This document shows positions 1 to 11,845 of a stretch of DNA of 11,845 bases, piece after piece (the first letter of the stretch is position 1; every line of letters starts with the position of its first letter). The notes below the pieces were generated by a model. The model worked only from the letters and a program-made list of their open reading frames with translations, was not told the origin of the DNA and did no database searches. The position numbers and the translations under genes were made by a program. Source of the DNA: a virus (lineage: Duplodnaviria; Heunggongvirae; Uroviricota; Caudoviricetes); IMG/VR virus record IMGVR_UViG_2541047885_000017, positions 1 to 11,845 of that record; one strand, 5' to 3'.

Positions 1-162
1 AGTTTGCTCCTGCCATAACGTGAAGAAGCAATGACCTGGTGGTCCGTGACTTCCCTACGCTGGCATTATCCAGATCAGGTGATACGGGTATTTCTTACTA
101 ATTTTTGTTATCAGTTGATAATTAATAAGTTTTTCAGCATACAAGAATTAAAAACCTCAAAA

Positions 163-187
163 CTGACCACACAACTGACCACACATT
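163..187. repeat. Tandem direct repeat, two copies of a 12-13 bp unit (AACTGACCACACA)
   Basis: Read directly: aactgaccacaca at 163-175 is followed immediately by actgaccacaca at 176-187. Function unknown; it lies in the non-coding end beyond the large terminase gene. Confidence 0.5.
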
Positions 188-451
188 TTGTTGAAGCTCT
201 ACGAACAACGACGAACAATAACAAACAAAAGGGAAATTTGCTGGCAGTTTTGCTTAACCGTTATCATTTTTCGGCTATCCGTTATCAAGCTGGTGGATGA
301 TTACGGATAACCCGTTATGGAGATCCCCATATCGGCATCATGCCCACCAGCATGAAGTATTTTTCGCGGGTGTAAAAATTTGACGGGGCGGACAGTTCCA
401 TAAGTAATGGGTTGCAGGAATTTCGATCCCCATCCTGAATGCAATTTTTCG

Positions 452-632
452 TATATATATATATACAAAACAGCGCGGGTTATGCGGGTTAGCGGGTTAT
501 CTTCGCGTGCTAAGCATTTTTTACTCTTTAATATCAATACGTTAAAAAACAACGTATTTAAATATCAGCCAGAGTGTAACCCGCAAGACATTCAAAATAA
601 CCCGCAAACACCCCTCAAAAAACCCGCAAAAA
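452..632. repeat. Structured non-coding array: (TA)7 tract, three tandem GCGGGTTA, AT-rich spacer, three inverted TAACCCGCAA at about 21 bp phasing
   Basis: Read directly: (TA)7 at 452-465; GCGGGTTA at 475-482, 484-491 and 492-499; AT-rich 501-576; the reverse-complement motif TAACCCGCAA at 577-586 and 598-607, and AACCCGCAA at 621-629. The two triplets face each other across the AT-rich centre. Role (integrase arm sites, terminase binding or origin) is inferred only. Confidence 0.55.
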
Positions 633-708
633 CATCCCTGAAAGTGGGTGCCGGTAATACTGAAAATTTATTCCATTAAATGAGCATTGTCCTCTCTCAT
701 CCATTCCG

Positions 709-2370
709 TTACACACCATCAAACGCCGCAAGCCGCTCTTTGTGGCTGTCGCTCATATCAAATGCAAATTCCTCATGCTCTGCCTGGAATGTGCCAAACG
801 CCATCAGCGCCGCAACGCTCGGGTCTATCTTGTTGGATGATTTTTTCTTGTTCGGCTTGATATTGGCGTTCGCGTCACTCTGCATCACAACATTACTCAT
901 TGACCAGGCCAGCACCGGATCACCACGATGCACAATCACCTTCCGGTTAACAAAAACTTCGAACGATTTCGCCGCCGGACTGAAACGAAGGTATGTTTGC
1001 GGGAACGGCTCCACCTCAAATCCTGCCCCCTGTAGCTGCGTCCTCAGGTGCGTGGCGTTCCATGTATCGAAGCCCACCAGCCTGATATTGAAATTCTCTG
1101 CATCCGCCATGATGTCATCACGGATACGGTCATAATCAATGCAGTCACCCGGTGTTGTGCGTATCCAGCCCGCCTTTACCCACTGGCGATAGATGGCGCG
1201 GTTTTTATTGGCGGGGTTCTGTAGCTGAAATTCCGGCAGATAGTGACGGGAAACCAGCATAATCTTTTTACCGACCGGAAAGGCATAGCACACGCTGGAA
1301 ATATCGCTGGTTGATGATAAGTCCAGCCCCGCGTAGCACTCCTGCCCGTATAAATCCGCCTCCGCGAACGTTCCGGCGCACTCCGCCCATGCACCGTTAC
1401 CCATCCACGGCGTAGCCCCCTGACACCAGATATTGAATCGCTTGGTGAGCATTTCCACCCACTGCGACGGAATACCCCGCGCTTTCTGGATGGTTGAGGC
1501 CAGTTTTTCACGATCGACGGAAACATCGATATTTGGATTCGCCTTTATCCACATCGCCGGATCGTCAACCTCGCTTTCATCATCCAGCTCGTAAATCAGA
1601 ACGAACATGGATTCGTTCATCTCTTCACCATCCAGTATCTGACAGCAATAGTCATAGTGTTGTTTACAGGCTGAAACAACGTTGCTCCCCGATGTGGTGA
1701 TGGCAAATAACAGCCCCTCCGGACGCGCCCCCATCCCCATATCAAGTGCGGAATAAACCCCGTTGTCTGGGTGCAGGTGATATTCATCCACAATGGCAAG
1801 ACTCGGGTTTGTCCCCTCAATGGTTGCCGCTTTTGCTGCCAGTGGCTTTAACAGGCTGTTGGTTTTCGGGTGTATCACCTTATGCGCCTGAATATTCACC
1901 CGCCTGCGTAACGGTCGGGATAAAAGGCACATCTGACGCGCATCATCAAAGACGATCCGCGCCTGGTCACGGCTCACCGCTGCGGTGTAGATATCCTGCT
2001 GACCGTTCTCCATAATCAAAAACCAGTTAGCCAGAATCGCGGCGGTCGTGGATTTCGCATTTTTGCGCGGCACTTCGATAAAGGCGCTCGTGTATTTGCG
2101 CCGTCCGGTGGCCTTAACCTTAAAGCCGAGGATGCACGCAAAGGCGAACTGCTGCCACGGCTCCAGCTCAATGGGTCTGCCACGCATCGGCCCTTTTACG
2201 TGCGGGCACACCCTGGAAAAGGCAATAAACCGCTCCACAACCTCACGATCGAACGTGTAAAGGGGGCTTTCAAGGTCCGAAAAGTACCGTTTAACGGCCT
2301 GTTTCAGCCGTTTACAGGCCGGAATTTTGCCCGTTTTTACGTCTTCTGCGTACTTATTCCAGGCGGTCAA
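709..2370 (-). CDS. terL: Phage terminase large subunit (ATPase/nuclease)
   Basis: 553-aa ORF. N-terminus MTAWNKYAEDVKTGKIPACKRLKQAVKRYF is typical of large terminases; P-loop-like PRKNAKSTTAAILANW; length and position after the small terminase fit. Starts at a TTG codon preceded by AAGAGGA with a 5-nt spacer, and overlaps the small terminase 3' end by 17 nt. Confidence 0.9.
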   Translation of the reverse strand: MTAWNKYAEDVKTGKIPACKRLKQAVKRYFSDLESPLYTFDREVVERFIAFSRVCPHVKGPMRGRPIELEPWQQFAFACILGFKVKATGRRKYTSAFIEVPRKNAKSTTAAILANWFLIMENGQQDIYTAAVSRDQARIVFDDARQMCLLSRPLRRRVNIQAHKVIHPKTNSLLKPLAAKAATIEGTNPSLAIVDEYHLHPDNGVYSALDMGMGARPEGLLFAITTSGSNVVSACKQHYDYCCQILDGEEMNESMFVLIYELDDESEVDDPAMWIKANPNIDVSVDREKLASTIQKARGIPSQWVEMLTKRFNIWCQGATPWMGNGAWAECAGTFAEADLYGQECYAGLDLSSTSDISSVCYAFPVGKKIMLVSRHYLPEFQLQNPANKNRAIYRQWVKAGWIRTTPGDCIDYDRIRDDIMADAENFNIRLVGFDTWNATHLRTQLQGAGFEVEPFPQTYLRFSPAAKSFEVFVNRKVIVHRGDPVLAWSMSNVVMQSDANANIKPNKKKSSNKIDPSVAALMAFGTFQAEHEEFAFDMSDSHKERLAAFDGV

Positions 2371-2710
2371 GCTCGTCCTCTTCTTCTGTTTCCGGTGGAT
2401 TTTTACGGCGGCTTATCGGGTCAAAACCGAGCAAGGAGGCCATTTTTATCATCACTCTTTCAGCGTCGGATTTTGCGCTTAATGCGGGGTTTCTGCTCTC
2501 GCCGCCCTGACTGTTAACAATGCTGAACCCGCGCGCCGCAAGGTCTGCGACGGCTTTCCGGTAAATGGAGTAGTTGACACAATACAGTTCCAGATTGCTC
2601 CAGTCGGCGGGGGTCAGGTCTCCCCGTTCCGCAAGCTGCCGCGATTTTTCCCGCCACTGCTTCACGGCGATATCATCCAGGTAGGCGGGGGCTTTCGGTG
2701 GTCTTGCCAT
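2354..2710 (-). CDS. terS: Phage terminase small subunit, P27 family
   Basis: 118-aa ORF MARPPKAPAYLDD...LELYCVNYSIYRKAVADLAARG...MASLLGFDPISRRK with acidic C-terminus, matching the P27-type small terminase pattern; sits immediately upstream of terL. The sequence just upstream of the ATG is a weak Shine-Dalgarno. Confidence 0.85.
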   Translation of the reverse strand: MARPPKAPAYLDDIAVKQWREKSRQLAERGDLTPADWSNLELYCVNYSIYRKAVADLAARGFSIVNSQGGESRNPALSAKSDAERVMIKMASLLGFDPISRRKNPPETEEEDELDRLE

Positions 2711-2998
2711 GCTTATTTTTCGTCAGATTATTTTTCAAAAAATTCCCGTGCATAAAAATTTGAGGAGGTGGTCGGTGTCCGGCAGGGACGGTTTCGTCCT
2801 GAAAACCTCCCCCACCCCCTCTGACGACTTCACCAGCGATTGCGAAAACATTCCATGACCTCGCGGTCACGGTCGGTTAATCGCTTCGCTGTGGTGCGTT
2901 CTATGCGTCCTGTCCTGTTGGCTTTGTGCCCTGTCTCCTGTGTCTTCCATAAGTCACGCTGCCTTATCAGTCCACGTATCAGCCTGTTTTGCTCCTGT
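2711..2998. other. Non-coding gap between HNH and terS; candidate cos/packaging-initiation region
   Basis: 288 bp without a convincing gene in an otherwise overlapping operon. Contains an imperfect hairpin cagggacggtttcgtcctg (2783-2801), a C-rich tract cctcccccaccccctc (2807-2822) and GAGGAGG (2763-2769). Position matches where HK97-like phages carry cos (between HNH and terS in the circular map). Assignment is by analogy only. Confidence 0.3.
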
Positions 2999-3439
2999 TC
3001 AGTCATCATCGCCATACATCCAGTCGTTACGATGTGCCGCCCGTTCTTCCTGCTCGCGATACATGCCCGCCTTACGGTTCGCTTTCGTGGCTGGATCTTC
3101 CCGTGTCGTCTTACGGTTGTGGCACGTCTGGCACAATGCCTGATGGTTCCACTCAGGCCAGAAGAGAACATCACCACCGCCATTGATGGGGATAATGTGA
3201 TCCACCACAAAGGCTGGCGTATAAATACCCTCAGCCAGACAACGCACACATAACGGATTTTTTTTCAGGTACAGGGCGCGATATTTGTCCCACTGTCGGG
3301 AATACCCGCGCGCGCGGCGGTGTCCTCGTCTGGCATCCTCTGCACGCCATGCCGCCCGCCTGTGCTCCTCACACTTGCCGGACTTCACGCGCCTGTTACA
3401 GCCTGGTTCTGTGCATCGTCTTAATGGTTGCCACGGCAT
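2999..3439 (-). CDS. HNH endonuclease (terminase-associated)
   Basis: 146-aa ORF with N-terminal Cys-rich MPWQPLRRCTEPGCNRRVKSGKCEEHRR and an HNH core LCVRCLAEG...VVDHIIPINGGGDVLFWPEWNHQALCQTCHNRKT. Start overlaps the stop of the upstream connector gene by 1 nt (TGATG). Confidence 0.85.
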   Translation of the reverse strand: MPWQPLRRCTEPGCNRRVKSGKCEEHRRAAWRAEDARRGHRRARGYSRQWDKYRALYLKKNPLCVRCLAEGIYTPAFVVDHIIPINGGGDVLFWPEWNHQALCQTCHNRKTTREDPATKANRKAGMYREQEERAAHRNDWMYGDDD

Positions 3440-3735
3440 CAGTACACCCCCACATCACGATAAACCGACCAGAGCGCGGAAATCGTCAGGGGAATTTCTT
3501 TTGTATCTGTATCGCCAAGCGTTGTCCGGTACTCGTACAGTTGCGAGATGTACATCAGGCAGCCAATTTTTATTGCAGGGGTAAATTCCAGGCCATCATC
3601 AAAACGCCTACCAATATGTTTCTGACATACCTCCAGCGCCGCGCTTATGTATGCCTGAATCAGTGTGTCTTCTGTGTTACCGTCTATGCGGCAGTGAAGT
3701 TTGGCTTCTTCCAGGGTTATTTTTTCTGCTGTCAT
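3439..3735 (-). CDS. Head-tail connector protein (gp6-like, DNA-packaging/head completion)
   Basis: 98-aa ORF MTAEKITLEEAKLHCRIDGNTEDTLIQAYISAALEVCQKHIGRRF, the characteristic N-terminal pattern of gp6-like head-tail connectors. 4-nt ATGA-type overlap with the upstream gene. Confidence 0.7.
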   Translation of the reverse strand: MTAEKITLEEAKLHCRIDGNTEDTLIQAYISAALEVCQKHIGRRFDDGLEFTPAIKIGCLMYISQLYEYRTTLGDTDTKEIPLTISALWSVYRDVGVY

Positions 3736-4070
3736 TTTTCTGTACCCACCTTTGCCAGAATTTCCAGCCGGGTTCTTTTCGCATCAGGTAAGGGGATCCC
3801 GATGATATTAAGCATGCTCCCGGCAAAAGCACCGGTAAGCACTTTCAGTCGACTGGCGGCGGATATGTCGCCACGATAGCGAACCCATACCCGAATCGTT
3901 GCAGGTGCGGTTTCTGCGCCTGCGGTCAGTAATTCCCGTCCGCTGATCCCCTTGACCTCTGCCCAGATGGTTTCCCCTTCCGTCCATATCTGCCGGATCG
4001 CTCCTGACGGCAGGCGCTGCGTGATAAATGTCATAATCGTCACCCGGTCCCGCATATTTCCGGCTATCAT
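3732..4070 (-). CDS. Head-tail adaptor / head closure protein
   Basis: 112-aa ORF in the position and size range of phage head-tail joining proteins, directly after the portal. Start ATG overlaps the portal stop (ATGA). Assigned by size, context and general resemblance, not a diagnostic motif. Confidence 0.6.
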   Translation of the reverse strand: MIAGNMRDRVTIMTFITQRLPSGAIRQIWTEGETIWAEVKGISGRELLTAGAETAPATIRVWVRYRGDISAASRLKVLTGAFAGSMLNIIGIPLPDAKRTRLEILAKVGTEK

Positions 4071-5290
4071 TCGTCACCGCCCTGACTGTTCTTGCTGATT
4101 GTCACTTCCTGCTTCCATGCCTGGCTGAACTCGTCGCCACCTTCACGCGGCGGCATTCCCTCACGCTCACGGGCTTCGTTCGGATTCATGATCCCGTTCT
4201 TAATCCCTTTCTCATACGTGGCGTAACGTTCGGTAGGGGTGGCGCGTAATAAATCAGCTGAATCAAACTCAACCAAATAACGGGTACCGGGTACGGGAGA
4301 AGCCACCAGCAAAGCGGCCTTGATTTGCTGTTCGAAGTTCGCCAGCCACGGGCGCATTGTCATGGTCAGAAACGCGCGGCTTGCCTCGCTGAAATTGCTG
4401 TAGGTGCTGTTGCTGTATTCCTGCAGAAAAATAGGCGATACGTTGAACATCCGGGCGATGTCTTCAATGGAGAAGCGACGGGAGGCCAGCCATTCCGCAT
4501 CCTGGTTACTCATTCCCAGTTGCTTGTAATCCATGCCCCCTTCAAGGATTGGCGTTTTTCCGGCATTTTTCGCCCCCTTGTAGCGTTCCAGAGCATCCAA
4601 TGCCTGTTTACCTTTCACGCCGTCCAGCCATTCGCCTGACGTGATAATCCCTGCCGCCATCATGCCATCTTTCATAATGCTGGCTCCGTGGCGCTGTTGA
4701 GCAAGGCCAAGCCCAAGTGCCTCACGGCAAATCGTGACAGGGGAGCGCCCCAGAAAGCCATCATCCGAGGCATAGCGGAGATGCAGAACTTCTTCCTGTA
4801 AATACGTGCGCACCGTTCCTGTATAGGGTTCGGTGATGGTATAGCGGTATTTGTGTGCGCCTGTGCGTTCCGGTACAACACAACCCGGTGCATAAGGATG
4901 AAGTGATTTTGGCTGACCGTCCCGCCCCCACTCAATAACCGCATAGGCGTTACCGTTCAGCAGGCAGTGACGCATCATTGTGCGTTTAAACTGGTAAGGT
5001 GTCTGGCACGAATTAGGCTGCTCATTCAGCAGAATATCTACCGGATGACTGTCCAGCCATTCCCGCGCCTCCCTGCCCTTGTCATTACGTACCAGATACA
5101 GATAACAAGGCATCGTGGCCACCGCCTCAGCGATGACAGAAACCGCGTTCATCACTGCAGGCAATGATTCAGCCGTCCCGGCAGAAACATATTCTCCGGA
5201 TCCGGTATTCGGTACGCCGGCCAGCGCCAGAAAATCATCAATGGACAGGTTACGTTGCTCACTTTTTTTACGACTAAAAGGCCACCACAT
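4067..5290 (-). CDS. Phage portal protein, HK97 family
   Basis: The track ORF (4067-5380) carries a Cys-rich 30-aa N-terminal extension that overlaps the protease gene. The Met at 5290 (MWWPFSRKKSEQ...) lies 1 nt after the protease stop and gives about 407 aa, typical portal length. The assignment rests on that length and on the conserved position between prohead protease and head-tail connector genes; no diagnostic motif was identified. Confidence 0.85.
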   Translation of the reverse strand: MWWPFSRKKSEQRNLSIDDFLALAGVPNTGSGEYVSAGTAESLPAVMNAVSVIAEAVATMPCYLYLVRNDKGREAREWLDSHPVDILLNEQPNSCQTPYQFKRTMMRHCLLNGNAYAVIEWGRDGQPKSLHPYAPGCVVPERTGAHKYRYTITEPYTGTVRTYLQEEVLHLRYASDDGFLGRSPVTICREALGLGLAQQRHGASIMKDGMMAAGIITSGEWLDGVKGKQALDALERYKGAKNAGKTPILEGGMDYKQLGMSNQDAEWLASRRFSIEDIARMFNVSPIFLQEYSNSTYSNFSEASRAFLTMTMRPWLANFEQQIKAALLVASPVPGTRYLVEFDSADLLRATPTERYATYEKGIKNGIMNPNEAREREGMPPREGGDEFSQAWKQEVTISKNSQGGDE

Positions 5291-5291
5291 A

Positions 5292-5852
5292 TCACAACCC
5301 CGCCAGCTCTGCCCAGCGATGACGATTATTTCCTGCCGGGCGTAATTCAGGGTGCAGTGCAAACAACGAACGGTGGGCAATCTCCACGCCAGATTCTGGA
5401 TAAGCAGGCATCGACGTTATCGTGATTTCACGGAGTTCTGCGGCGGTAACAGTGCGCAGATACGGTTTTTGCGCGATATTCCACTCCTCGCATAATGCGC
5501 GAAAGCCAAAGCTCATTCCTGTAATGTCGCCCCGCTCCACCAGCGTAAGCACATCTTTCCCAAGCTGGGTATCCGGCGGTGTCAGTTCAAAACGTAACCC
5601 GGTGTTATCCTCAGTCAGTACCAGAGTGCCGGATTTGGTACGCCCCAGCAGTCGGGTACAGTCATGCTCATACAGGCAGCGCACATCATTACCCGCAGCC
5701 AGATAGTCAGCAAAAGCCCCCGGCGTGAACTGTTCGCGGAACTCATCCCAGATAATTTCTGAAAGGCTGTTCCAGCGAACGGCATACCCCACCAGCTTTT
5801 TATTGCTGGCGGTCAGTTCAGATGTGCGGATTTCAAAATCGGTGTTTTTCAT
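5292..5852 (-). CDS. Prohead maturation protease, HK97 family (S78-like)
   Basis: 186-aa ORF MKNTDFEIRTSELTASNKKLVGYAVRWNS...CLYEHD...GDITGMSFGF: typical length, His-containing and GxSxG-like serine motifs, and position between capsid and portal. Confidence 0.9.
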   Translation of the reverse strand: MKNTDFEIRTSELTASNKKLVGYAVRWNSLSEIIWDEFREQFTPGAFADYLAAGNDVRCLYEHDCTRLLGRTKSGTLVLTEDNTGLRFELTPPDTQLGKDVLTLVERGDITGMSFGFRALCEEWNIAQKPYLRTVTAAELREITITSMPAYPESGVEIAHRSLFALHPELRPAGNNRHRWAELAGL

Positions 5853-5906
5853 CGGTGTACTCCATAAAGCTGAAAAAGGAGGCCGCAGCCTCCTCCTTAC
5901 TCATGA

Positions 5907-7076
5907 CTAGCCAGCTTTCATTTCCAGAATTTTGATGGCGTTTGAATCCACCACACCACCGCCCAGATATTTATCCGTGTGGACCTTGTAGAATCCGGGT
6001 TCAGTAATGTTGTCCGGTCGGGTGCGAATACCCGTTACATGATCAACGATGAAATAACCACGACTGAAATCACCAACCGCGAGCGGTGCTTTTCCTGCGC
6101 CGATGTCCGGCATGGACTCCAGGCAGTAAACAGGACGACCAAGCAACATATCCGGCGCACCTTCTTTAAGGCTGTCGCGCCAGATATAATCTCCATTCTC
6201 ATTTTTCAGCTTCTGTAGTGTCCCTGCCGTGCCCGAGTTCATCACCCAGACGGCATTTTTGCGGTATTTCGCTTTCAGCTTGTAGAGAATGTCGATCAGT
6301 TCGTCCGCTGTAATGGAGGTTCCACTTGCCGCTACCATTTTTTCAATGGTGCCAAAAGCGCGGGTTTTGTCACTGGTCGCTGCACGGGTGTAAGCCATGA
6401 AGCCTTTCGGCTTGCCGTTACCGTCGCCATTAACAAAATCATCCTCTTCGGTGCTGGCGAACGTGTCGGCAATTTCGGAGGATAACCAGCCCAGAATATC
6501 CACCTCTGAAAAATCCAGGATTTCCTGCGTGGTTTTCGGGTAGGCGTAGATCGGATTCAGCTTGATGGTTACGCGTTCAATTTTCGGGGTGTTGGTTTCG
6601 CTGCGCGCGCTGCCTTCTGTGCCTCGTCCTACAGTTGCGCCGCCAGTGGAAACCAGTTTCTGAAACTCATTTGATTTTGCGGTCTTCACGGTCGCGATCA
6701 CGCGCATAACACTGTCATCCTGTAGCTGGCGCATGACTTCGCGATCAAGCTCAGGAATTACGGTATATCCGCCATCCCTGCCGCTGTCAGTGCTGGTGGA
6801 CAGTGATCGCACATCTCCGGTTACGATGTAGTTACGCAATTCATCAGATGATAATTTCTGGATGCCCGTTCCTGGCTTGCTGCGTTCTTCATCAGCCACA
6901 GACTCGAGGCGGGAAATTTCTGTGTCGAGGGAATCGGCTTTTGCACGCAGTTCATCAAACTGTTTGCCCTCGTCATCGTTCAGGCTGCGGTTTTCACTGT
7001 CGGCTTTTTCCAGCAGGGATCGCATCTGGTTTTTCAGGGCGGTTTTTTGCTGGCGGAGTTCGATTAATTTCTTCAT
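5907..7076 (-). CDS. Major capsid protein, HK97 fold, with N-terminal delta/scaffold domain
   Basis: 389-aa ORF. The first 100 or so residues are a coiled-coil-like charged region (MKKLIELRQQKTALKNQMRSLLEKADSENRSL...), as in HK97-type capsid delta domains, followed by a capsid-sized body; adjacent to the prohead protease. Confidence 0.9.
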   Translation of the reverse strand: MKKLIELRQQKTALKNQMRSLLEKADSENRSLNDDEGKQFDELRAKADSLDTEISRLESVADEERSKPGTGIQKLSSDELRNYIVTGDVRSLSTSTDSGRDGGYTVIPELDREVMRQLQDDSVMRVIATVKTAKSNEFQKLVSTGGATVGRGTEGSARSETNTPKIERVTIKLNPIYAYPKTTQEILDFSEVDILGWLSSEIADTFASTEEDDFVNGDGNGKPKGFMAYTRAATSDKTRAFGTIEKMVAASGTSITADELIDILYKLKAKYRKNAVWVMNSGTAGTLQKLKNENGDYIWRDSLKEGAPDMLLGRPVYCLESMPDIGAGKAPLAVGDFSRGYFIVDHVTGIRTRPDNITEPGFYKVHTDKYLGGGVVDSNAIKILEMKAG

Positions 7077-7270
7077 GAAGGTTTTCTCGTATTGGTTAAG
7101 ATTCAGGACGTGAAACCAACACGGAGGGAGCGCCGCCCGACACTCTCAGCATCTCGCAGATCAACCCGGCATCGCGCAGGGGGTCAGGCGGCATTGTGGC
7201 GGCTCACGTCTGAGTGCCACACGCCAACATATACATAAAAATCAGTATGTAAACATCAGCCAGAATCACC

Positions 7271-7296
7271 GAACAATCTGGAACAACCGCGAACAA
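7271..7296. promoter_or_regulatory. Three GAACAA direct repeats at exactly 10-bp phasing upstream of the capsid operon
   Basis: Read directly: GAACAA at 7271-7276, 7281-7286 and 7291-7296 (TTGTTC on the coding minus strand). They lie between the terminator and the capsid start in a 273-bp non-coding leader. A regulatory role is inferred. Confidence 0.3.
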
Positions 7297-7313
7297 ATAA
7301 TTTACAAAACCTG

Positions 7314-7340
7314 AAAAAAGACCCGGGAAAAATCCGGGCC
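7314..7340 (-). terminator. Rho-independent terminator
   Basis: Minus-strand RNA reads GGCCCGG-AUUUUUC-CCGGGUC followed by UUUUUU: a GC-rich stem of 5-7 bp, 7-nt loop and T-tract. It starts 10 nt after the stop of the 82-aa ORF and is followed by a long leader before the capsid gene. Confidence 0.6.
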
Positions 7341-7349
7341 TTTATCGCT

Positions 7350-7598
7350 TTACTGTTTCACGGGATCGCGCATTCTGCGCCTTATTTTCCACAAATATTC
7401 GATCATCGCTTCCACCTGCTCACGGTTGGTTGCGAAAATTTCCCCGGTCAGTGAGCTGCGCAGAAAATCATGATGATCCACAACAAACAACGCATCGGAA
7501 GAAAGCAGACGGCGATATTTTTTTGCTGTCGTGGTTTCCAGATCATCAAAACCATGAAACTTTTTATGTTGCTGAACTTCTTCAAATGTCACAGGCAT
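7350..7598 (-). CDS. Hypothetical protein (82 aa)
   Basis: Track ORF 7350-7637; preferred start is the internal Met at 7598 (MPVTFEEVQQHKKF...), preceded by AGGAGGA with a 5-nt spacer. No recognisable motif. Last gene before the terminator. Confidence 0.5.
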   Translation of the reverse strand: MPVTFEEVQQHKKFHGFDDLETTTAKKYRRLLSSDALFVVDHHDFLRSSLTGEIFATNREQVEAMIEYLWKIRRRMRDPVKQ

Positions 7599-7643
7599 GT
7601 TTCCTCCTGCTACCACGATACCAGAAACAGTTAACAACCGTTA

Positions 7644-7925
7644 TCAATTATCCCTTTTTTTCGGGTAGTTCCTGAACATCTCACCGCCAGGTTTCTGTAA
7701 GCCCATCCCGGTATGTGTGCGGTTTATGGCCTCTTTCAGTATTCCGAAATTATCCGGTATGACTGGTTGGCGCGCTGCCTTACGGATACATTCCGCGCGA
7801 CGCTTTGCCACCTGTTCGCGCTCCTTGTCAGTGCTCACCAGCCACATAACATCAGCCCAACGTGCCGCTGCTCTCCGGTACAGCCCTTTAGCCTCCAGTT
7901 CTTCCGCTTTGCTGTCTTTAATCAT
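7644..7925 (-). CDS. Small regulatory protein, possibly PerC-family transcriptional activator-like
   Basis: Preferred start is the ATG at 7925 (MIKDSKAEELEAKGLYRRAAARWADVMWLVSTDKEREQVAKRRAECIRKAARQP), preceded by GAGG with a 6-nt spacer. The KAEELEAKGLYRRAAARW...RR..CI pattern resembles PerC/Pch-type activators as I recall them; this is not verified by search. Confidence 0.45.
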   Translation of the reverse strand: MIKDSKAEELEAKGLYRRAAARWADVMWLVSTDKEREQVAKRRAECIRKAARQPVIPDNFGILKEAINRTHTGMGLQKPGGEMFRNYPKKRDN

Positions 7926-7940
7926 GCTGTACCTCACTGC

Positions 7941-8366
7941 TTAAAACGGTATCCCGTCCCCGTACGGGTCATCGTGCTGGCTTGTCTGTTGTTTTGCCCT
8001 GTTCAGTGCGTCAGTGTCCTGGCCCTGTTGACCTTTTTTGCCGCCCGGTCGCGCCGTTCGCGCACTGATTACGCTGTCTGCAATAACCTGCCAGCCCTGC
8101 CGCGTTTCCCCGTTCTGGCCTGTCCACTGGCTCACCTGCATTGTGCCGGATACGCTGGCAACATCGCCTTTGTGGTGTTTAGCCAGGAAGTCAGCCTGTT
8201 TGCCAAATGCGATGACCGACAACCACAACGTCGCCTGTCCGTCCTGTGCCTGACTGCATGGCAGTGATACCGCCATACGCGCCAGCGTCATCGGTGTGCC
8301 CTTGCTGGTCTGTTTTACCTGCGGGTCGTCCACCAGCCGCCCGTAAGCGGCTATCTGTGCTGTCAT
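7941..8366 (-). CDS. ssb: Single-stranded DNA-binding protein
   Basis: 141-aa ORF. The OB-fold region aligns by eye with E. coli SSB (GRLVDDPQV vs GNLGQDPEV; WLSVIAFGKQADFLAKHHKGDVASVSGTMQVSQWTGQNGE vs [41 protein letters not shown]). Gly/Gln-rich linker and acidic tail ending DGIPF (cf. DDDIPF). Strong RBS GGAGAGG. Confidence 0.85.
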   Translation of the reverse strand: MTAQIAAYGRLVDDPQVKQTSKGTPMTLARMAVSLPCSQAQDGQATLWLSVIAFGKQADFLAKHHKGDVASVSGTMQVSQWTGQNGETRQGWQVIADSVISARTARPGGKKGQQGQDTDALNRAKQQTSQHDDPYGDGIPF

Positions 8367-8620
8367 GATTCCACCTCTCCGGTTTTAACGTTGATGGTTG
8401 TTACCTGTTCTGCTTCTGCGATCTCCCGTTCTGTCAGCGTGGCAAAGTTTGCCGCTGCTGTGGTCATGAATGCGCTTATCAGGTCGGGATGTGCTTTCGC
8501 GTATCCTTCCCCCGTGTTGCGGTCGATGATTTTTATCGCCACTCTCAGCCAGTGCTCTGTAAGGTCAATGGCGCGGTTATGCTGCTTCTTCTGATTATTA
8601 AGTTTTCCTGATGTGCGCAT
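8363..8620 (-). CDS. Hypothetical protein (85 aa)
   Basis: ORF between the iteron block and ssb. Its stop overlaps the ssb start (ATGA). No recognisable motif. Confidence 0.45.
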   Translation of the reverse strand: MRTSGKLNNQKKQHNRAIDLTEHWLRVAIKIIDRNTGEGYAKAHPDLISAFMTTAAANFATLTEREIAEAEQVTTINVKTGEVES

Positions 8621-8663
8621 TTTTATTTTTACCCCCTCGTTTAAAAAGTTTTGAGTTGTGCCT

Positions 8664-8900
8664 CCCCCCCTCTACCCATCTACCCGAATGCTCATCATGT
8701 CAGTAATGGCGCGGCTTTCAGCGGGTAGATAGCTTTTTTGGCTCCTCTACCTGCCGTCTACCCTGCTACCTGAAACTGATAAAATCAGGTAGAAGAGGTA
8801 GAGAGCTTTTATTAGCCTTCTACCTGGCCCTCTACCTACTTATCATGTTGAATAATATGCGTTTATTTCATTCAGGTAGATGGGGTAGAGGGCTTTTACA
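8664..8900. repeat. Iteron array; putative origin of replication
   Basis: Read directly: about 12 copies of the hexamer TCTACC or its complement GGTAGA in about 220 bp, mostly in closely spaced pairs (8671/8679, 8723 rc, 8746/8757/8766, 8788/8797 rc, 8819/8831, 8875/8884 rc), interspersed with AT-rich stretches (8771-8786, 8837-8873). A 28-bp unit CAGGTAGAnGnGGTAGAGnGCTTTTA recurs at 8786 and 8873. Located immediately 3' of the primase-helicase gene. Confidence 0.7.
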
Positions 8901-8905
8901 AAAAA

Positions 8906-10660
8906 TTATAAAAACGCGTCGCAATCGTCTGTTGTAATTGCGTTGGTCTGCGTTACTCCCTTAACTTTTCGCGTAATATATTCATGTCCGTAAACTTTCG
9001 CCGCTGGCTTCATGGCCTTGCTGAACTCAGCCACGTTTAGCGGTTTGCTCCTGCCTGCGTATGCCATAAACGCCAGATAGACGCGGTAAAGGCTGTTTCT
9101 GGTCGTGTACCTGGAAGAGTCACCGCCGCCGCCCATCATCAGGCCGCGTGCTTCTTCCAGAAAGTTAAGGAACTGGCAAAACTCAATAACCGGATCCGTC
9201 TGTTGCTTTATTGCCAGTGCTTCATCACCGTCACGCTGTTCCAGTAGTAAAGCCCGTGCCTTCTCAGGGTCGGTAAAGTTCGCCAGCAATCGGCGGATAA
9301 TGACAGGGATTTCAGCCGCGATCTTTTCCGGTAGCTCCCTGTCTTTTTCGGCCTCACTGACGATATTGTCGAAACGGAAAATCACGCGACGACGTGCCAC
9401 ACCTCCGGCCCGTTCGGTGAATATCATCGGGTTATTATTGGTTGCCAGCACAACCGCCCTGATTACCGCTGTGAAACGCTTTTCATATTTCGGGTTGATT
9501 TCCACGGGGTCGCCGCCCGTGATTTTCTTGATGCCCGTGCCTTCGCCTGTATATTTCGGCTGGTCTGCCAGGACGATAAGACGACTCCCGACAACCTGCG
9601 CACGTCCACCAGCATCATCAAGCGATGTCATTTCAGCGCTTACCGTGTTTTGTTTCCCTGCCAGAAGGCTGGCTATGTGTGTGAATGTACTTTTACCGCT
9701 CCCGCCGTCTCCGGTGGCCTCAATAAACATCTGCCAGTCGTACCGGTTCGCCATAATCATGTACAGCGCGGCACATATACGCATCATCTTGCGCGGGTCT
9801 TTTCCGGCTGCGTGCTCAAGCCATTTATGAAAGTTTGGCGCGTTGTCGCGGATGTTCTCCCCTGGTGCTGCTGGCGTGTACTCAATGCCGTTGTGCGTGG
9901 TGATCCAGTTCTCCGGCGTGTGCGGGGAAAATTCCCCCGTTTTCAGGTCAAGCGCACCATTGGCGAACGGCAGCAAATCGCCGGACGGCTCGCCCATTGG
10001 TTCGGCAATAACTTTTAACGCTTCCACGGCGTTATTGATTACGCGCTTGCTGAAAGTGGCCCTGTGCTCTGAATAGATCGCCACCATTTCGCGGCTAAGT
10101 TCCATTGTGCTGACCGGACACCATACCCCGCCGCGCCATACGTGAACGATTTCACTTTCAGGATGTACGCAAACGCCATCAAAGCGATCGGCAAGCAGCT
10201 GCGCGCGCTCACTGTCCGCCATCTGCGAAAGTTGCGCCTTTTGCTTTACCGGAAGCTCAATAACCAGACCATCAGAAAGATTCTGGCGTTCACGGGCCAG
10301 ATATTCGCGCCAGTTCTGCACCTCCTGGCCGTGCATACCCTCAGGATAAAAATTTGCATCCTGTACGCCTGCCGCCGCCAGCTTCTGACCAATCGCCTTT
10401 ATCATTACAGGCGCAAGATATCCGGCCCTGTATATGCGTGCTGATTTTCGGCCTTCCGGCACAATTTGCAGATTATCCAGTTCGGATAGCTGCTGCTCCC
10501 CAAGCCACACAGGAGGCTCATTATCTCCGGCCATACGCGCATCATGTTCCTGCCATTGTTTCGCGTGTGACCAGGCATCACTACCCGCAAAAATAATGAC
10601 TTCTGTTTCTTTGTGTTTTATGCCGCGTGACTGCTGTTTTACGTTCGGTGCCAGTTTCAT
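8906..10660 (-). CDS. Replication initiator: P4/D5-family DNA primase-helicase (SF3-type P-loop NTPase)
   Basis: 584-aa ORF. Walker A ATGDGGSGKST; hydrophobic strand RLIVLADQ, Walker B-like; D5_N-like segment LPFANGALDLKTGEF. Start has AGGGG with a 5-nt spacer and overlaps the upstream ORF stop (ATGA). Confidence 0.85.
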   Translation of the reverse strand: MKLAPNVKQQSRGIKHKETEVIIFAGSDAWSHAKQWQEHDARMAGDNEPPVWLGEQQLSELDNLQIVPEGRKSARIYRAGYLAPVMIKAIGQKLAAAGVQDANFYPEGMHGQEVQNWREYLARERQNLSDGLVIELPVKQKAQLSQMADSERAQLLADRFDGVCVHPESEIVHVWRGGVWCPVSTMELSREMVAIYSEHRATFSKRVINNAVEALKVIAEPMGEPSGDLLPFANGALDLKTGEFSPHTPENWITTHNGIEYTPAAPGENIRDNAPNFHKWLEHAAGKDPRKMMRICAALYMIMANRYDWQMFIEATGDGGSGKSTFTHIASLLAGKQNTVSAEMTSLDDAGGRAQVVGSRLIVLADQPKYTGEGTGIKKITGGDPVEINPKYEKRFTAVIRAVVLATNNNPMIFTERAGGVARRRVIFRFDNIVSEAEKDRELPEKIAAEIPVIIRRLLANFTDPEKARALLLEQRDGDEALAIKQQTDPVIEFCQFLNFLEEARGLMMGGGGDSSRYTTRNSLYRVYLAFMAYAGRSKPLNVAEFSKAMKPAAKVYGHEYITRKVKGVTQTNAITTDDCDAFL

Positions 10661-10956
10661 TTTTTACCCCTGAATCCGTTAATCATGGTTTTCAGCTTCT
10701 GGATGTTTGCCCGTGCCCTGGCGTTGCTGGTGGGCACGTTATGCGGCGCGGTCTGTACCAGAGAAAAATCACGCCGGAACTGATAAACAGGCATCACGCA
10801 ATCATATTCGTAGCCTTCACGACGGTAGGTTACGCGCCGTTCCTCCACGCCCTTAATCATTACCGTGCCGCCGTACTGGTCGCGGTAAATATCACCGCGC
10901 ATGAATTTAGTGCGAGTTTTGCCACTGGCAGTTAAGCCAGAATATTTAAGTTTCAT
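10657..10956 (-). CDS. Hypothetical protein (99 aa, basic)
   Basis: ORF translationally coupled to the primase-helicase (ATGA overlap). No recognisable motif. Confidence 0.45.
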   Translation of the reverse strand: MKLKYSGLTASGKTRTKFMRGDIYRDQYGGTVMIKGVEERRVTYRREGYEYDCVMPVYQFRRDFSLVQTAPHNVPTSNARARANIQKLKTMINGFRGKK

Positions 10957-10961
10957 TATTT

Positions 10962-11195
10962 TTATTCTCCGGTGTGGGGCGCTTTATACTGGTCGTGTAA
11001 TGTCTCTATTTCCTGCAACTCATTTATTACAGGCTCAAGAAGCGTTATTAATGCCGTGGCAATTCTTGATTTTTGTTTGTCGCGTTCATTGTCGCCAAGT
11101 GTTTCAAGCCATATGCGCAATATTTCCAGCATGTTTTCACTGTGAGAAAGTGCAAGAAATGCGCGGTCTATTGTTTCGTGGTAAATATCACGCAT
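10962..11195 (-). CDS. Hypothetical protein (77 aa)
   Basis: ORF in the same orientation and tight spacing as its neighbours. No recognisable motif. Confidence 0.4.
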   Translation of the reverse strand: MRDIYHETIDRAFLALSHSENMLEILRIWLETLGDNERDKQKSRIATALITLLEPVINELQEIETLHDQYKAPHTGE

Positions 11196-11196
11196 A

Positions 11197-11649
11197 TTAA
11201 TCCCCGTCCGTCGTTTTTCTTAAAATAACCTCTGTCACGAAATCAGCATAATCGGCGGCGATATTCAGTACATCAAGCCCCGTTGATTTATATTCTCTCG
11301 TGGAAAGTAAGAAAAAAGCCGCTCTAATAAGTTCTGGCATTGACGAAAGCGCATCAGCCGCATCATCAGGAACGCCGGGAAATTCCTGTTTCAGGGCATT
11401 AAAACGATCATCACGCATAACCCCCCCATTTTCACAATCAGCAATCAGGATGGCTTTAGCCTCATTCAGTGCCATATCAGCACTAAGTTGCATAACAGCC
11501 AGTGAGTGAGGAACGAAAGCCCCGGCATATTCTGTTTCACTGGTGGCGTGCTTATGCGCCCTGTCCGCGATAACAGAAATATCAATCAGCGCATCAATCA
11601 GTGTTTTGATTGCTTCGGCGGCTGCGTCCGGACGGGTGTTATTGCACAT
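11197..11649 (-). CDS. Hypothetical protein (150 aa, acidic)
   Basis: ORF with a good RBS (AGGGGG, 5-nt spacer). Asp/Glu/Ala-rich. No recognisable motif. Confidence 0.5.
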   Translation of the reverse strand: MCNNTRPDAAAEAIKTLIDALIDISVIADRAHKHATSETEYAGAFVPHSLAVMQLSADMALNEAKAILIADCENGGVMRDDRFNALKQEFPGVPDDAADALSSMPELIRAAFFLLSTREYKSTGLDVLNIAADYADFVTEVILRKTTDGD

Positions 11650-11845
11650 GGCGCACCCCCTGACGAATACGGGCAGTAAATACCATCACGCAGCCAGCCG
11701 GGGATTGCTGGCGTGCTTCCTGTTCGCTGGTGGCCTCAATGTGAATCACGCGCGGTTGTGCGGTGCTCAGGGCAATAAAACGCCAGATGTATTTATTCAG
11801 GTTGTGTGAGTCCCGCCCTTGCGGGTGTGTGGTATGATTTCTCAT
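11639..11845 (-). CDS. Hypothetical protein, possibly truncated by the window edge
   Basis: ORF whose ATG coincides with the last three bases of the window, so the true start may lie outside. Overlaps the downstream ORF by 11 nt. No recognisable motif. Confidence 0.3.
   Translation of the reverse strand: MRNHTTHPQGRDSHNLNKYIWRFIALSTAQPRVIHIEATSEQEARQQSPAGCVMVFTARIRQGVRHVQ

Follow-up and report, generated by a model that had tools for sequence, protein, structure and literature searches.

SaPI origins carry 6-12 short iterons directly downstream of rep around an AT-rich centre, which has two or more of them to its left and to its right, in opposed directions (PMC9371898). The winged-helix domain of SaPI Rep binds these iterons independently of ATP; the central AT-rich region is melted and hexamers self-load on either side (PMC9371898). 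For E. coli PICIs the origin has been described as an AT-rich region between two iteron sets, 3' of pri-rep (Fillol-Salom 2018, ISME J, PMC6092414). In that study, maintenance of an EcCICFT073 pri-rep-ori plasmid at the restrictive temperature required rep, and deletion of the ori significantly lowered the colony numbers (it is not reported to have brought them to zero).

Here we analyse an array of short repeats on a stretch of viral DNA of 11,845 bp, referred to as the window. Judged from its gene content, the window is a capsid-forming PICI (cf-PICI) of the EcCIEDL933 type. All genes lie on the minus strand, in the order DUF4222, Pri-Rep, iterons, 85-aa protein, SSB, PerC, head and packaging genes (Table 1), and correspond in content and order to what has been published for cf-PICIs of Proteobacteria (bioRxiv 10.1101/2022.09.08.507074); tail genes are absent from the window. 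The int/alpA end of the island lies beyond the window edge, and both int and alpA are present in close relatives, where the integration site adjoins thiM. Among complete E. coli genomes none contains the window as a whole, coverage reaching 82% in the best matches. The ori region is found in 556-564 of the 5,426 complete E. coli genomes, chromosomal in every case, and about 87 of these carry the window's own allele at an identity of at least 95%. No annotated feature underlies the region in any of 564 E. coli genomes.

Table 1. Coordinates of the origin region, its neighbours and the head and packaging genes in the window
Feature	Position	Strand	Basis
Pri-Rep initiator/helicase, 584 aa	8906-10660	-	Pfam, NCBIfam TIGR01613, PDB matches
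Intergenic region, 285 bp, read as PICI ori	8621-8905	.	between Pri-Rep stop codon and 85-aa gene start
Iteron GGTAGA, proximal pair copy 1 (in Pri-Rep direction)	8884-8889	+	invariant in 9 alleles
Iteron GGTAGA, proximal pair copy 2	8875-8880	+	invariant in 9 alleles
Spacer, 38 bp, 76% AT, opposed iteron pairs on either side; putative melting site (DNA-unwinding element)	8837-8874	.	composition; PMC9371898
Iteron (TCTACC on + strand)	8831-8836	-	motif count
Iteron (TCTACC on + strand)	8819-8824	-	motif count
Iteron GGTAGA	8797-8802	+	motif count
Iteron GGTAGA	8788-8793	+	motif count
Second AT-rich spacer, 17 bp, 76% AT, amid inverted iteron sets	8771-8787	.	composition
Degenerate iteron GGTAGC (GCTACC on + strand)	8765-8770	-	one mismatch
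Iteron (TCTACC on + strand)	8757-8762	-	invariant in 9 alleles
Iteron (TCTACC on + strand)	8746-8751	-	invariant in 9 alleles
Single iteron GGTAGA, adjoins conserved block	8724-8729	+	motif count
Conserved non-iteron block, 21 bp, CTGAAAGCCGCGCCATTACTG on Pri-Rep strand	8701-8721	-	near-invariant in 9 E. coli alleles
Iteron (TCTACC on + strand), distal pair	8679-8684	-	invariant in 9 alleles
Iteron (TCTACC on + strand), distal pair	8671-8676	-	invariant in 8/9 alleles
Leader plus ribosome-binding site AAAACTTTTTAAACGAGGGGGTAAAAATAAA of 85-aa gene, conserved	8621-8653	-	invariant alignment blocks
85-aa conserved protein, phrog_1231	8363-8620	-	PHROG match
Island-encoded SSB, replication-module accessory	7941-8366	-	Pfam SSB, E = 1.8e-16
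HK97-type major capsid	5907-7076	-	Pfam/PHROG
Prohead protease	5292-5852	-	Pfam/PHROG
Portal	4067-5380	-	Pfam/PHROG
Head closure/connector	3439-4070	-	Pfam/PHROG
HNH	2999-3439	-	Pfam/PHROG
TerS	2354-2710	-	Pfam/PHROG
TerL	709-2370	-	Pfam/PHROG

In Pri-Rep, Pfam recognises a D5_N domain (aa 153-282), the DUF5906 core of an SF3 helicase (aa 316-417) and, at the sequence level, a C-terminal winged-helix DNA-binding domain of the Pox_D5/P4-alpha type (aa ~488-576). The N-terminal ~140 aa matched no Pfam or NCBIfam family. In PDB, SaPI5 PriRep (7OLA, E = 3e-15) was hit by the helicase core, and the winged-helix domain with which P4 alpha binds its origin (1KA8, E = 1e-5) by the C-terminus; over aa 141-573 Pri-Rep has an identity of 40% to P4 alpha. 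No primase domain is recognisable in Pri-Rep: the alignment begins around alpha residue 324, and the EGYATA region of alpha is opposite a gap.

The hexamer GGTAGA/TCTACC is found in 12 exact copies in the window (both strands), 11 of which lie inside 8671-8889; the single stray copy is located at 5037. In 200 dinucleotide shuffles of the window the mean count was 2.56 (with a maximum of 10), and base composition predicts 0.11 copies per 219 bp, giving a Poisson probability of 7e-19 for at least 11. Together, these figures exclude chance as the explanation of the cluster. The twelfth member of the array is the one-mismatch variant GGTAGC. Following the + strand from 8671 to 8889, the iterons are oriented - - + - - - + + - - + +, with start-to-start distances of 8, 45, 22, 11, 8, 23, 9, 22, 12, 44 and 9 bp; therefore, the majority form pairs or a triplet with members 8-12 bp apart. 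The extended consensus measures ~10 bp (R-GGTAGA-N-R-R-S). Longer units recur as well: one of 27 nt (8785-8811 against 8872-8898, 89% identity) and one of 30 nt (8724-8753 against 8797-8826, 77% identity). The 38-bp spacer has the pairs 8819/8831 (-) and 8875/8884 (+) on its two sides, and the 17-bp spacer is bracketed by the iterons at 8746/8757/8765 (-) and 8788/8797 (+). The leader and ribosome-binding site of the 85-aa gene are outside the array.

Neither a DnaA-box nor an IHF consensus is present in the array, and a scan of 8300-9200 gave neither a sigma-70-like promoter nor a terminator. One terminator-like hit fell outside the array and at chance rate, and the terminator reading was dropped. 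An Rfam search of the array gave no significant match and none near threshold, a TPP riboswitch is absent from the thiM-proximal end of the window, and the ori nucleotide query returned zero matches in the phage collection.

An earlier note on this DNA, made from the letters alone, had described about 12 cores in both orientations within some 220 bp, mostly as pairs 8-12 bp apart and organised in longer units of about 28 bp, all of which agrees with the counts, distances and units given above. It had also placed AT-rich stretches between the repeats; this is correct for 8837-8874 and 8771-8787, but not for the 39-bp spacer at 8685-8723, which has an AT content of only 46% and holds the conserved non-iteron block. 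The array was further said to lie directly 3' of a primase-helicase. The position stands (the first iteron is 16 bp beyond the Pri-Rep stop codon) and so does the helicase, whereas the primase part does not.

The closest described counterpart is EcCICFT073, an island that we located in the CFT073 genome (its ori region corresponds to L004:38997-39284). Its Pri-Rep is identical to that of the window in 570 of 584 residues (98%), and the intergenic region 3' of its pri-rep contains 11 GGTAGA/TCTACC cores, arranged almost as in the window. As in the window, an AT-rich spacer separates inverted iteron pairs, the conserved non-iteron block is present, and the array is followed by the 85-aa gene, ssb and perC; positions 7776-11469 of the window are 92% identical to EcCICFT073. 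The differences concern the ori itself, for which nucleotide identity is only ~74%, and the order of the iterons, which in pri-rep direction reads <<>><<>>><>> in the window against <<><<<>><>> in EcCICFT073 (the third and fourth positions are rearranged). The sites differ too: the window cassette resides in a cf-PICI adjoining thiM, whereas EcCICFT073 is of the classical PICI kind and occupies the phoQ/roxA site.

Given the near-identical Pri-Rep, the GGTAGA array of EcCICFT073 and the published replication test, we regard the array as one allele of an origin that has already been described and tested. It is very probably a PICI replication origin, namely an EcCICFT073-type rep-ori cassette that is here situated within a capsid-forming PICI. 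The origin type is already known, a near-identical EcCICFT073 module having been tested in 2018, so that the array of the window is an ordinary one. The interpretation as a SaPI- or P4-like satellite origin, put forward in the earlier note, is supported by the island type, the initiator homology, the EcCICFT073 module and the covariation treated below; the comparison of initiators and iterons across related islands that it had suggested turned out positive, with few exceptions. Its remark that the core motif matches no recognised origin needs correction: GGTAGA belongs to the described EcCICFT073-type origin. A literature search over the running text of papers found no relevant passage that pairs GGTAGA/TCTACC with 'iteron'.

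SaPIbov1, SaPI1 and SaPI5 share with the window an SF3 helicase initiator with a C-terminal winged helix, and iterons 3' of it in opposed sets around AT-rich DNA. They differ in iteron sequence and in host (Gram-negative for the window), and the initiators are only distantly related, with the similarity restricted to the helicase core. The layout is also not the same: in the window the iterons form three or four groups and there are two AT-rich spacers, whereas SaPIs have a single central one. Plasmid iterons are direct tandem repeats of 17-22 bp, bound by winged-helix Rep monomers and accompanied by DnaA boxes and loading of the host DnaB. The iteron plasmids pSC101, R6K, RK2, F and P1 resemble the window in having repeated initiator sites beside AT-rich DNA, but the window combines inverted cores of 6-10 bp with the lack of a DnaA or IHF consensus and with an initiator that is itself a helicase.

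A second iteron module is present in the window at 475-627. It consists of three copies of GCGGGTTA, an AT-rich spacer of 77 bp and then two copies of TAACCCGC and one of AAACCCGC, and it aligns with the origin found beside DUF927-type initiators, as in cf-PICIs of the EcCIEDL933 type. A tandem of two such modules is found 3' of the DUF927 gene in an EcCIEDL933-type cf-PICI of O157:H7. In the window the module is positioned at the far end of the island, and the initiator is non-cognate. The same distal, non-cognate placement is observed in P4-type, RepA-type and GGTAGA-type islands at thiM, yifB or clpS, and in two DUF927 islands the module is distal as well; the EcCICFT073 and 2011C-4251 islands are without it. 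Compared between the window and a RepA-type island, the iteron cores of the module are identical at 47 of 48 positions (remaining columns: 135 of 161). The module could be a relic; alternatively, it could act in cis from a distance, as in P4, or serve as an origin for an initiator supplied in trans. That the GGTAGA array would be only one of two origins on the island, with the other at 475-627, we consider rather unlikely.

P4 leads to another alternative, in which the GGTAGA array would be crr-like, that is, needed in cis and bound by the initiator while replication starts elsewhere. In the P4 record crr occupies 4291-4590, right after the alpha stop at 4636, and ori is found at 9086-9809; the position of crr is equivalent to that of the array, with the true ori 4.5 kb off. 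Both crr and the array have iterons in both orientations directly 3' of the initiator gene, the 120-bp units of crr are each arranged as '> <<< AT-rich >>', similar to the window, and alpha is homologous to Pri-Rep in its helicase and C-terminal origin-binding domain. The sister PICI alleles CEA106S and vB_KppS-Ant even combine the P4 type-1 repeat with the same overall layout. Nonetheless, the type-1 repeats bound by alpha are TGTTCACC, which the array of the window, with its core GGTAGA, lacks, the DNA-binding domain of alpha is only 31% identical to that of the window, and its primase domain is missing from Pri-Rep. P4 is moreover bipartite (ori plus crr), whereas the window and the complete GGTAGA-type islands possess a single GGTAGA cluster: a second one is absent from the window (which has the one stray copy and excludes the int/alpA end) and also from the complete EcCICFT073 and 2011C-4251 islands. 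In addition, rep together with the region 3' of it was tested as a sufficient replicon in the published work (PMC6092414). A crr-like role is therefore very improbable.

We aligned nine E. coli alleles, the spacers of which have diverged to ~72% identity. In this alignment 72% of the columns inside iteron cores show no variation, compared with 23% outside them (Fisher p = 1e-12). The Pri-Rep proteins of the nine alleles are 88-98% identical and almost invariant in their C-terminal 240 residues; two array layouts, the window type and the CFT073 type, occur among the E. coli alleles.

Islands with packaging modules 94-97% identical to that of the window have other initiators and other iterons, at the same position and in the same architecture. 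CEA106S encodes a Pri-Rep of 49% identity and has the iteron GGTGAACA, which the P4 record confirms as the type-1 repeat of that phage; CREC-2 has a DUF927 protein as initiator and the iteron ATAACCCGC; PEC148 has an initiator of the RepA helicase family and the iteron GTGGGGA. Four initiator types thus correspond to four iteron motifs at one position in syntenic islands. Over 8574-10286 of the window, comprising helicase, DNA-binding domain and ori, nucleotide homology to CEA106S is absent; this segment is the exchanged cassette, which moves as a unit. Relative to GTGAACA-type initiators, Pri-Rep has diverged most in its C-terminal DNA-binding domain: that of the window (aa 488-576) is 31-33% identical to three of these initiators, P4 alpha included, while their C-terminal domains are 48-83% identical among themselves.

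Similar tendencies are seen on a wider scale in a survey of 77 usable loci from Enterobacterales and Aeromonas, with one genome scanned per species, in which a locus was called GGTAGA-type if the 400 bp 3' of the initiator held at least six GGTAGA. This applied to 16 of the 77 loci, most with the same arrow pattern, in Shigella, Rosenbergiella, Xenorhabdus, Symbiopectobacterium, E. ruysiae, Yersinia, Kluyvera, Raoultella and Pantoea. Identity to the DNA-binding domain of the window has a median of 52% for GGTAGA-type loci and 35% for those with other motifs (p = 2e-6), whereas identity of the helicase core barely separates the two groups (p = 0.05); as the loci are phylogenetically related, these p-values overstate independence. 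Exceptions exist in both directions: in E. ruysiae L032 and Kluyvera L072 the iterons are GGTAGAC although the DNA-binding domains reach an identity of just 31-35%, and some Aeromonas loci have domains that are ~50% identical yet other motifs. Overall, as far as can be judged from these 77 loci, iteron type tracks the C-terminal winged-helix domain of the initiator with few exceptions. The 85-aa and DUF4222 proteins were also considered as specificity determinants and rejected, given that they are 71-90% identical across islands with differing iterons (for the 85-aa protein, 71-80% in islands with GTGAACA or GTGGGGA iterons).

It might be argued that the repeats function mainly as an operator or in copy control, through autoregulation, handcuffing or a roadblock between the transcription of pri-rep and that of ssb, perC and the capsid genes. 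Plasmid iterons do double as origin and copy-control sites, and the array is situated inside a unidirectional operon, between pri-rep and the genes downstream. Against this, neither a sigma-70-like promoter nor a terminator was detected in 8300-9200, inverted sets around AT-rich DNA are the layout of a helicase-loading origin, and specificity follows the DNA-binding domain of the helicase. Origin function has moreover been shown for the near-identical EcCICFT073 module (PMC6092414). A mainly regulatory function is thus very improbable, though a regulatory side role of the iterons is compatible with a role as origin. It is hardly credible that the array serves recognition in packaging (cos/pac), is a structured RNA or arose by chance as a low-complexity cluster: the island does have its own HNH-TerS-TerL, and terminase small subunits bind repeated sites, but the array is also present in EcCICFT073 and other classical PICIs without this packaging module and swaps with the initiator rather than with terS, and the latter two options are countered by the Rfam result and the exclusion of chance.

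Besides the iterons, the block CTGAAAGCCGCGCCATTACTG is characteristic of this type of origin: it is present only in GGTAGA-type origins, across genera. It can be made out in Shigella, Symbiopectobacterium and Raoultella and takes the form CTCAAAGCC in Xenorhabdus and Rosenbergiella. The block might provide a second site of recognition, such as one for a host factor or one for priming that offsets the missing primase domain. Two structural candidates for the block-bearing spacer (37-40 bp; 8685-8723 in the window) were rejected. As to a conserved hairpin, the only pairing that RNAalifold predicted for 16 alleles was between the inverted iterons on the flanks, and covariation was absent; as to a single-strand initiation signal, z-scores of ssDNA folding ranged from -2.6 to +1.5, that of the window itself being +1.5.

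For the array as origin we propose the following course of events. Upon helper-phage induction and excision Pri-Rep would be made and act as a hexameric SF3 helicase, whose C-terminal winged-helix domain may bind the ~10-bp iterons (core GGTAGA), as in SaPI Rep and P4 alpha. By the same analogy, Pri-Rep on both flanks would melt 8837-8874, the most likely melting site, and perhaps 8771-8787, and would load itself on the single-stranded DNA without a separate loader. Unwinding would then proceed bidirectionally, with the strands coated by the island's own SSB. Primers would probably be supplied by the host primase, since Pri-Rep has no recognisable primase domain.

Summarizing, the presence of an EcCICFT073-type cassette inside a cf-PICI documents that helicase, DNA-binding domain and ori are exchanged as one unit. 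The natural series of motifs on one layout (GGTAGA, GGTGAACA, ATAACCCGC, GTGGGGA and others) could serve studies of winged-helix specificity. Beside this otherwise known rep-ori cassette, the orphan DUF927-type module at 475-627 poses a small question. If it works, a satellite present in the same cell might, through its initiator, replicate the island in trans, or the module might act as a P4-like distant cis element; replication in trans, if true, would amount to cross-satellite exploitation of replication.

Judged by sequence identity, the island is a mosaic of a packaging half and a replication half. We compared the entire window (1-11845) with four other islands (L004, L011, L012 and L013): the packaging half (702-8570) shares 96-97% identity with cf-PICIs integrated at thiM and yifB, which carry three other initiator types, and the classical PICI EcCICFT073 (L004) matches the replication half (7776-11469) at 92% identity. 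Coverage of the window above 82% was found in no complete E. coli genome.

Features of the island considered here (window coordinates)
Feature	Position	Strand	Remarks
Second iteron array	475-627 (context 388-650)		motif unlike GGTAGA
GCGGGTTA x3	475-499		left part of second module
AT-rich spacer, 77 bp			between left and right iteron sets
TAACCCGC x2 + AAACCCGC x1	577-627		right part of second module
PerC-family transcriptional activator	7644-7937	minus	Pfam E = 3e-35
Non-iteron block CTGAAAGCCGCGCCATTACTG	8701-8721	minus	inside the GGTAGA-type origin
Pri-Rep aa 1-140	10240-10660

The second iteron module matches the origins that adjoin DUF927-type initiators (L011:10385-10521) and is present as a tandem pair in the cf-PICI of O157:H7 (L096:14023-14330). 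In the window it lies downstream of terL, at the island's far end, and the initiator encoded on the island is non-cognate. A module of this type is also carried by islands that are integrated elsewhere and encode P4-type, RepA-type or GGTAGA-type initiators; EcCICFT073 is without one. Between the window and the RepA-type island the cores are better conserved (47/48 positions) than the spacers (135/161).

Directly before this module a conserved stretch (388-470) holds a perfect small hairpin (region of GGAATTTCGATCCCC) and a (TA)n run. Stretch and module stay together in islands whose integration sites differ (L097, L098). ARAGORN called no tRNA in this stretch, and its role is possibly att- or packaging-related. 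L097 itself is a DUF927-type PICI-like island adjoining dinD in E. coli ExPEC XM (L097:13315-21373), where the usual place of the capsid genes is taken by a ProQ/FinO protein and three hypothetical proteins of very large size (~690-920 aa); these may be defence or accessory cargo.

Within the replication half, the so-called primase Pri-Rep contains no recognisable primase domain: the primase region present in P4 alpha is missing. Its N-terminal ~140 residues match no Pfam or NCBIfam family and find only phrog_2850, a PHROG with no assigned function. Since the N-terminus is 72% identical to the CEA106S allele and the helicase only 45%, sequence comparison suggests that recombination took place within pri-rep, with a breakpoint near window 10286.

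The non-iteron block of the GGTAGA-type origin is near-invariant across nine E. coli alleles and still discernible in GGTAGA-type origins of other genera; it is absent from origins with other iterons, and no conserved hairpin was found in it. In two E. coli genomes (L009:2590-4715 and L010:2590-4699) pri-rep is broken by an IS1 or IS110-family element, and the iteron array 3' of the disrupted gene is kept (11 and 7 exact cores, respectively). Immediately downstream of the replication module the window carries the PerC-family gene; in some strains, PerC homologues encoded by PICIs are reported to switch on the LEE pathogenicity island (PMC6092414).

The P4 type-1 repeat (GGTGAACA/TGTTCACC) is used by the PICI of E. 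coli CEA106S (L013:10162-10448) and also occurs in the PICI of 'phage' vB_KppS-Ant (L015:2953-3230), and in both the arrow layout is the one seen in GGTAGA origins. P4 alpha and these two PICI origins might therefore engage in cross-talk.
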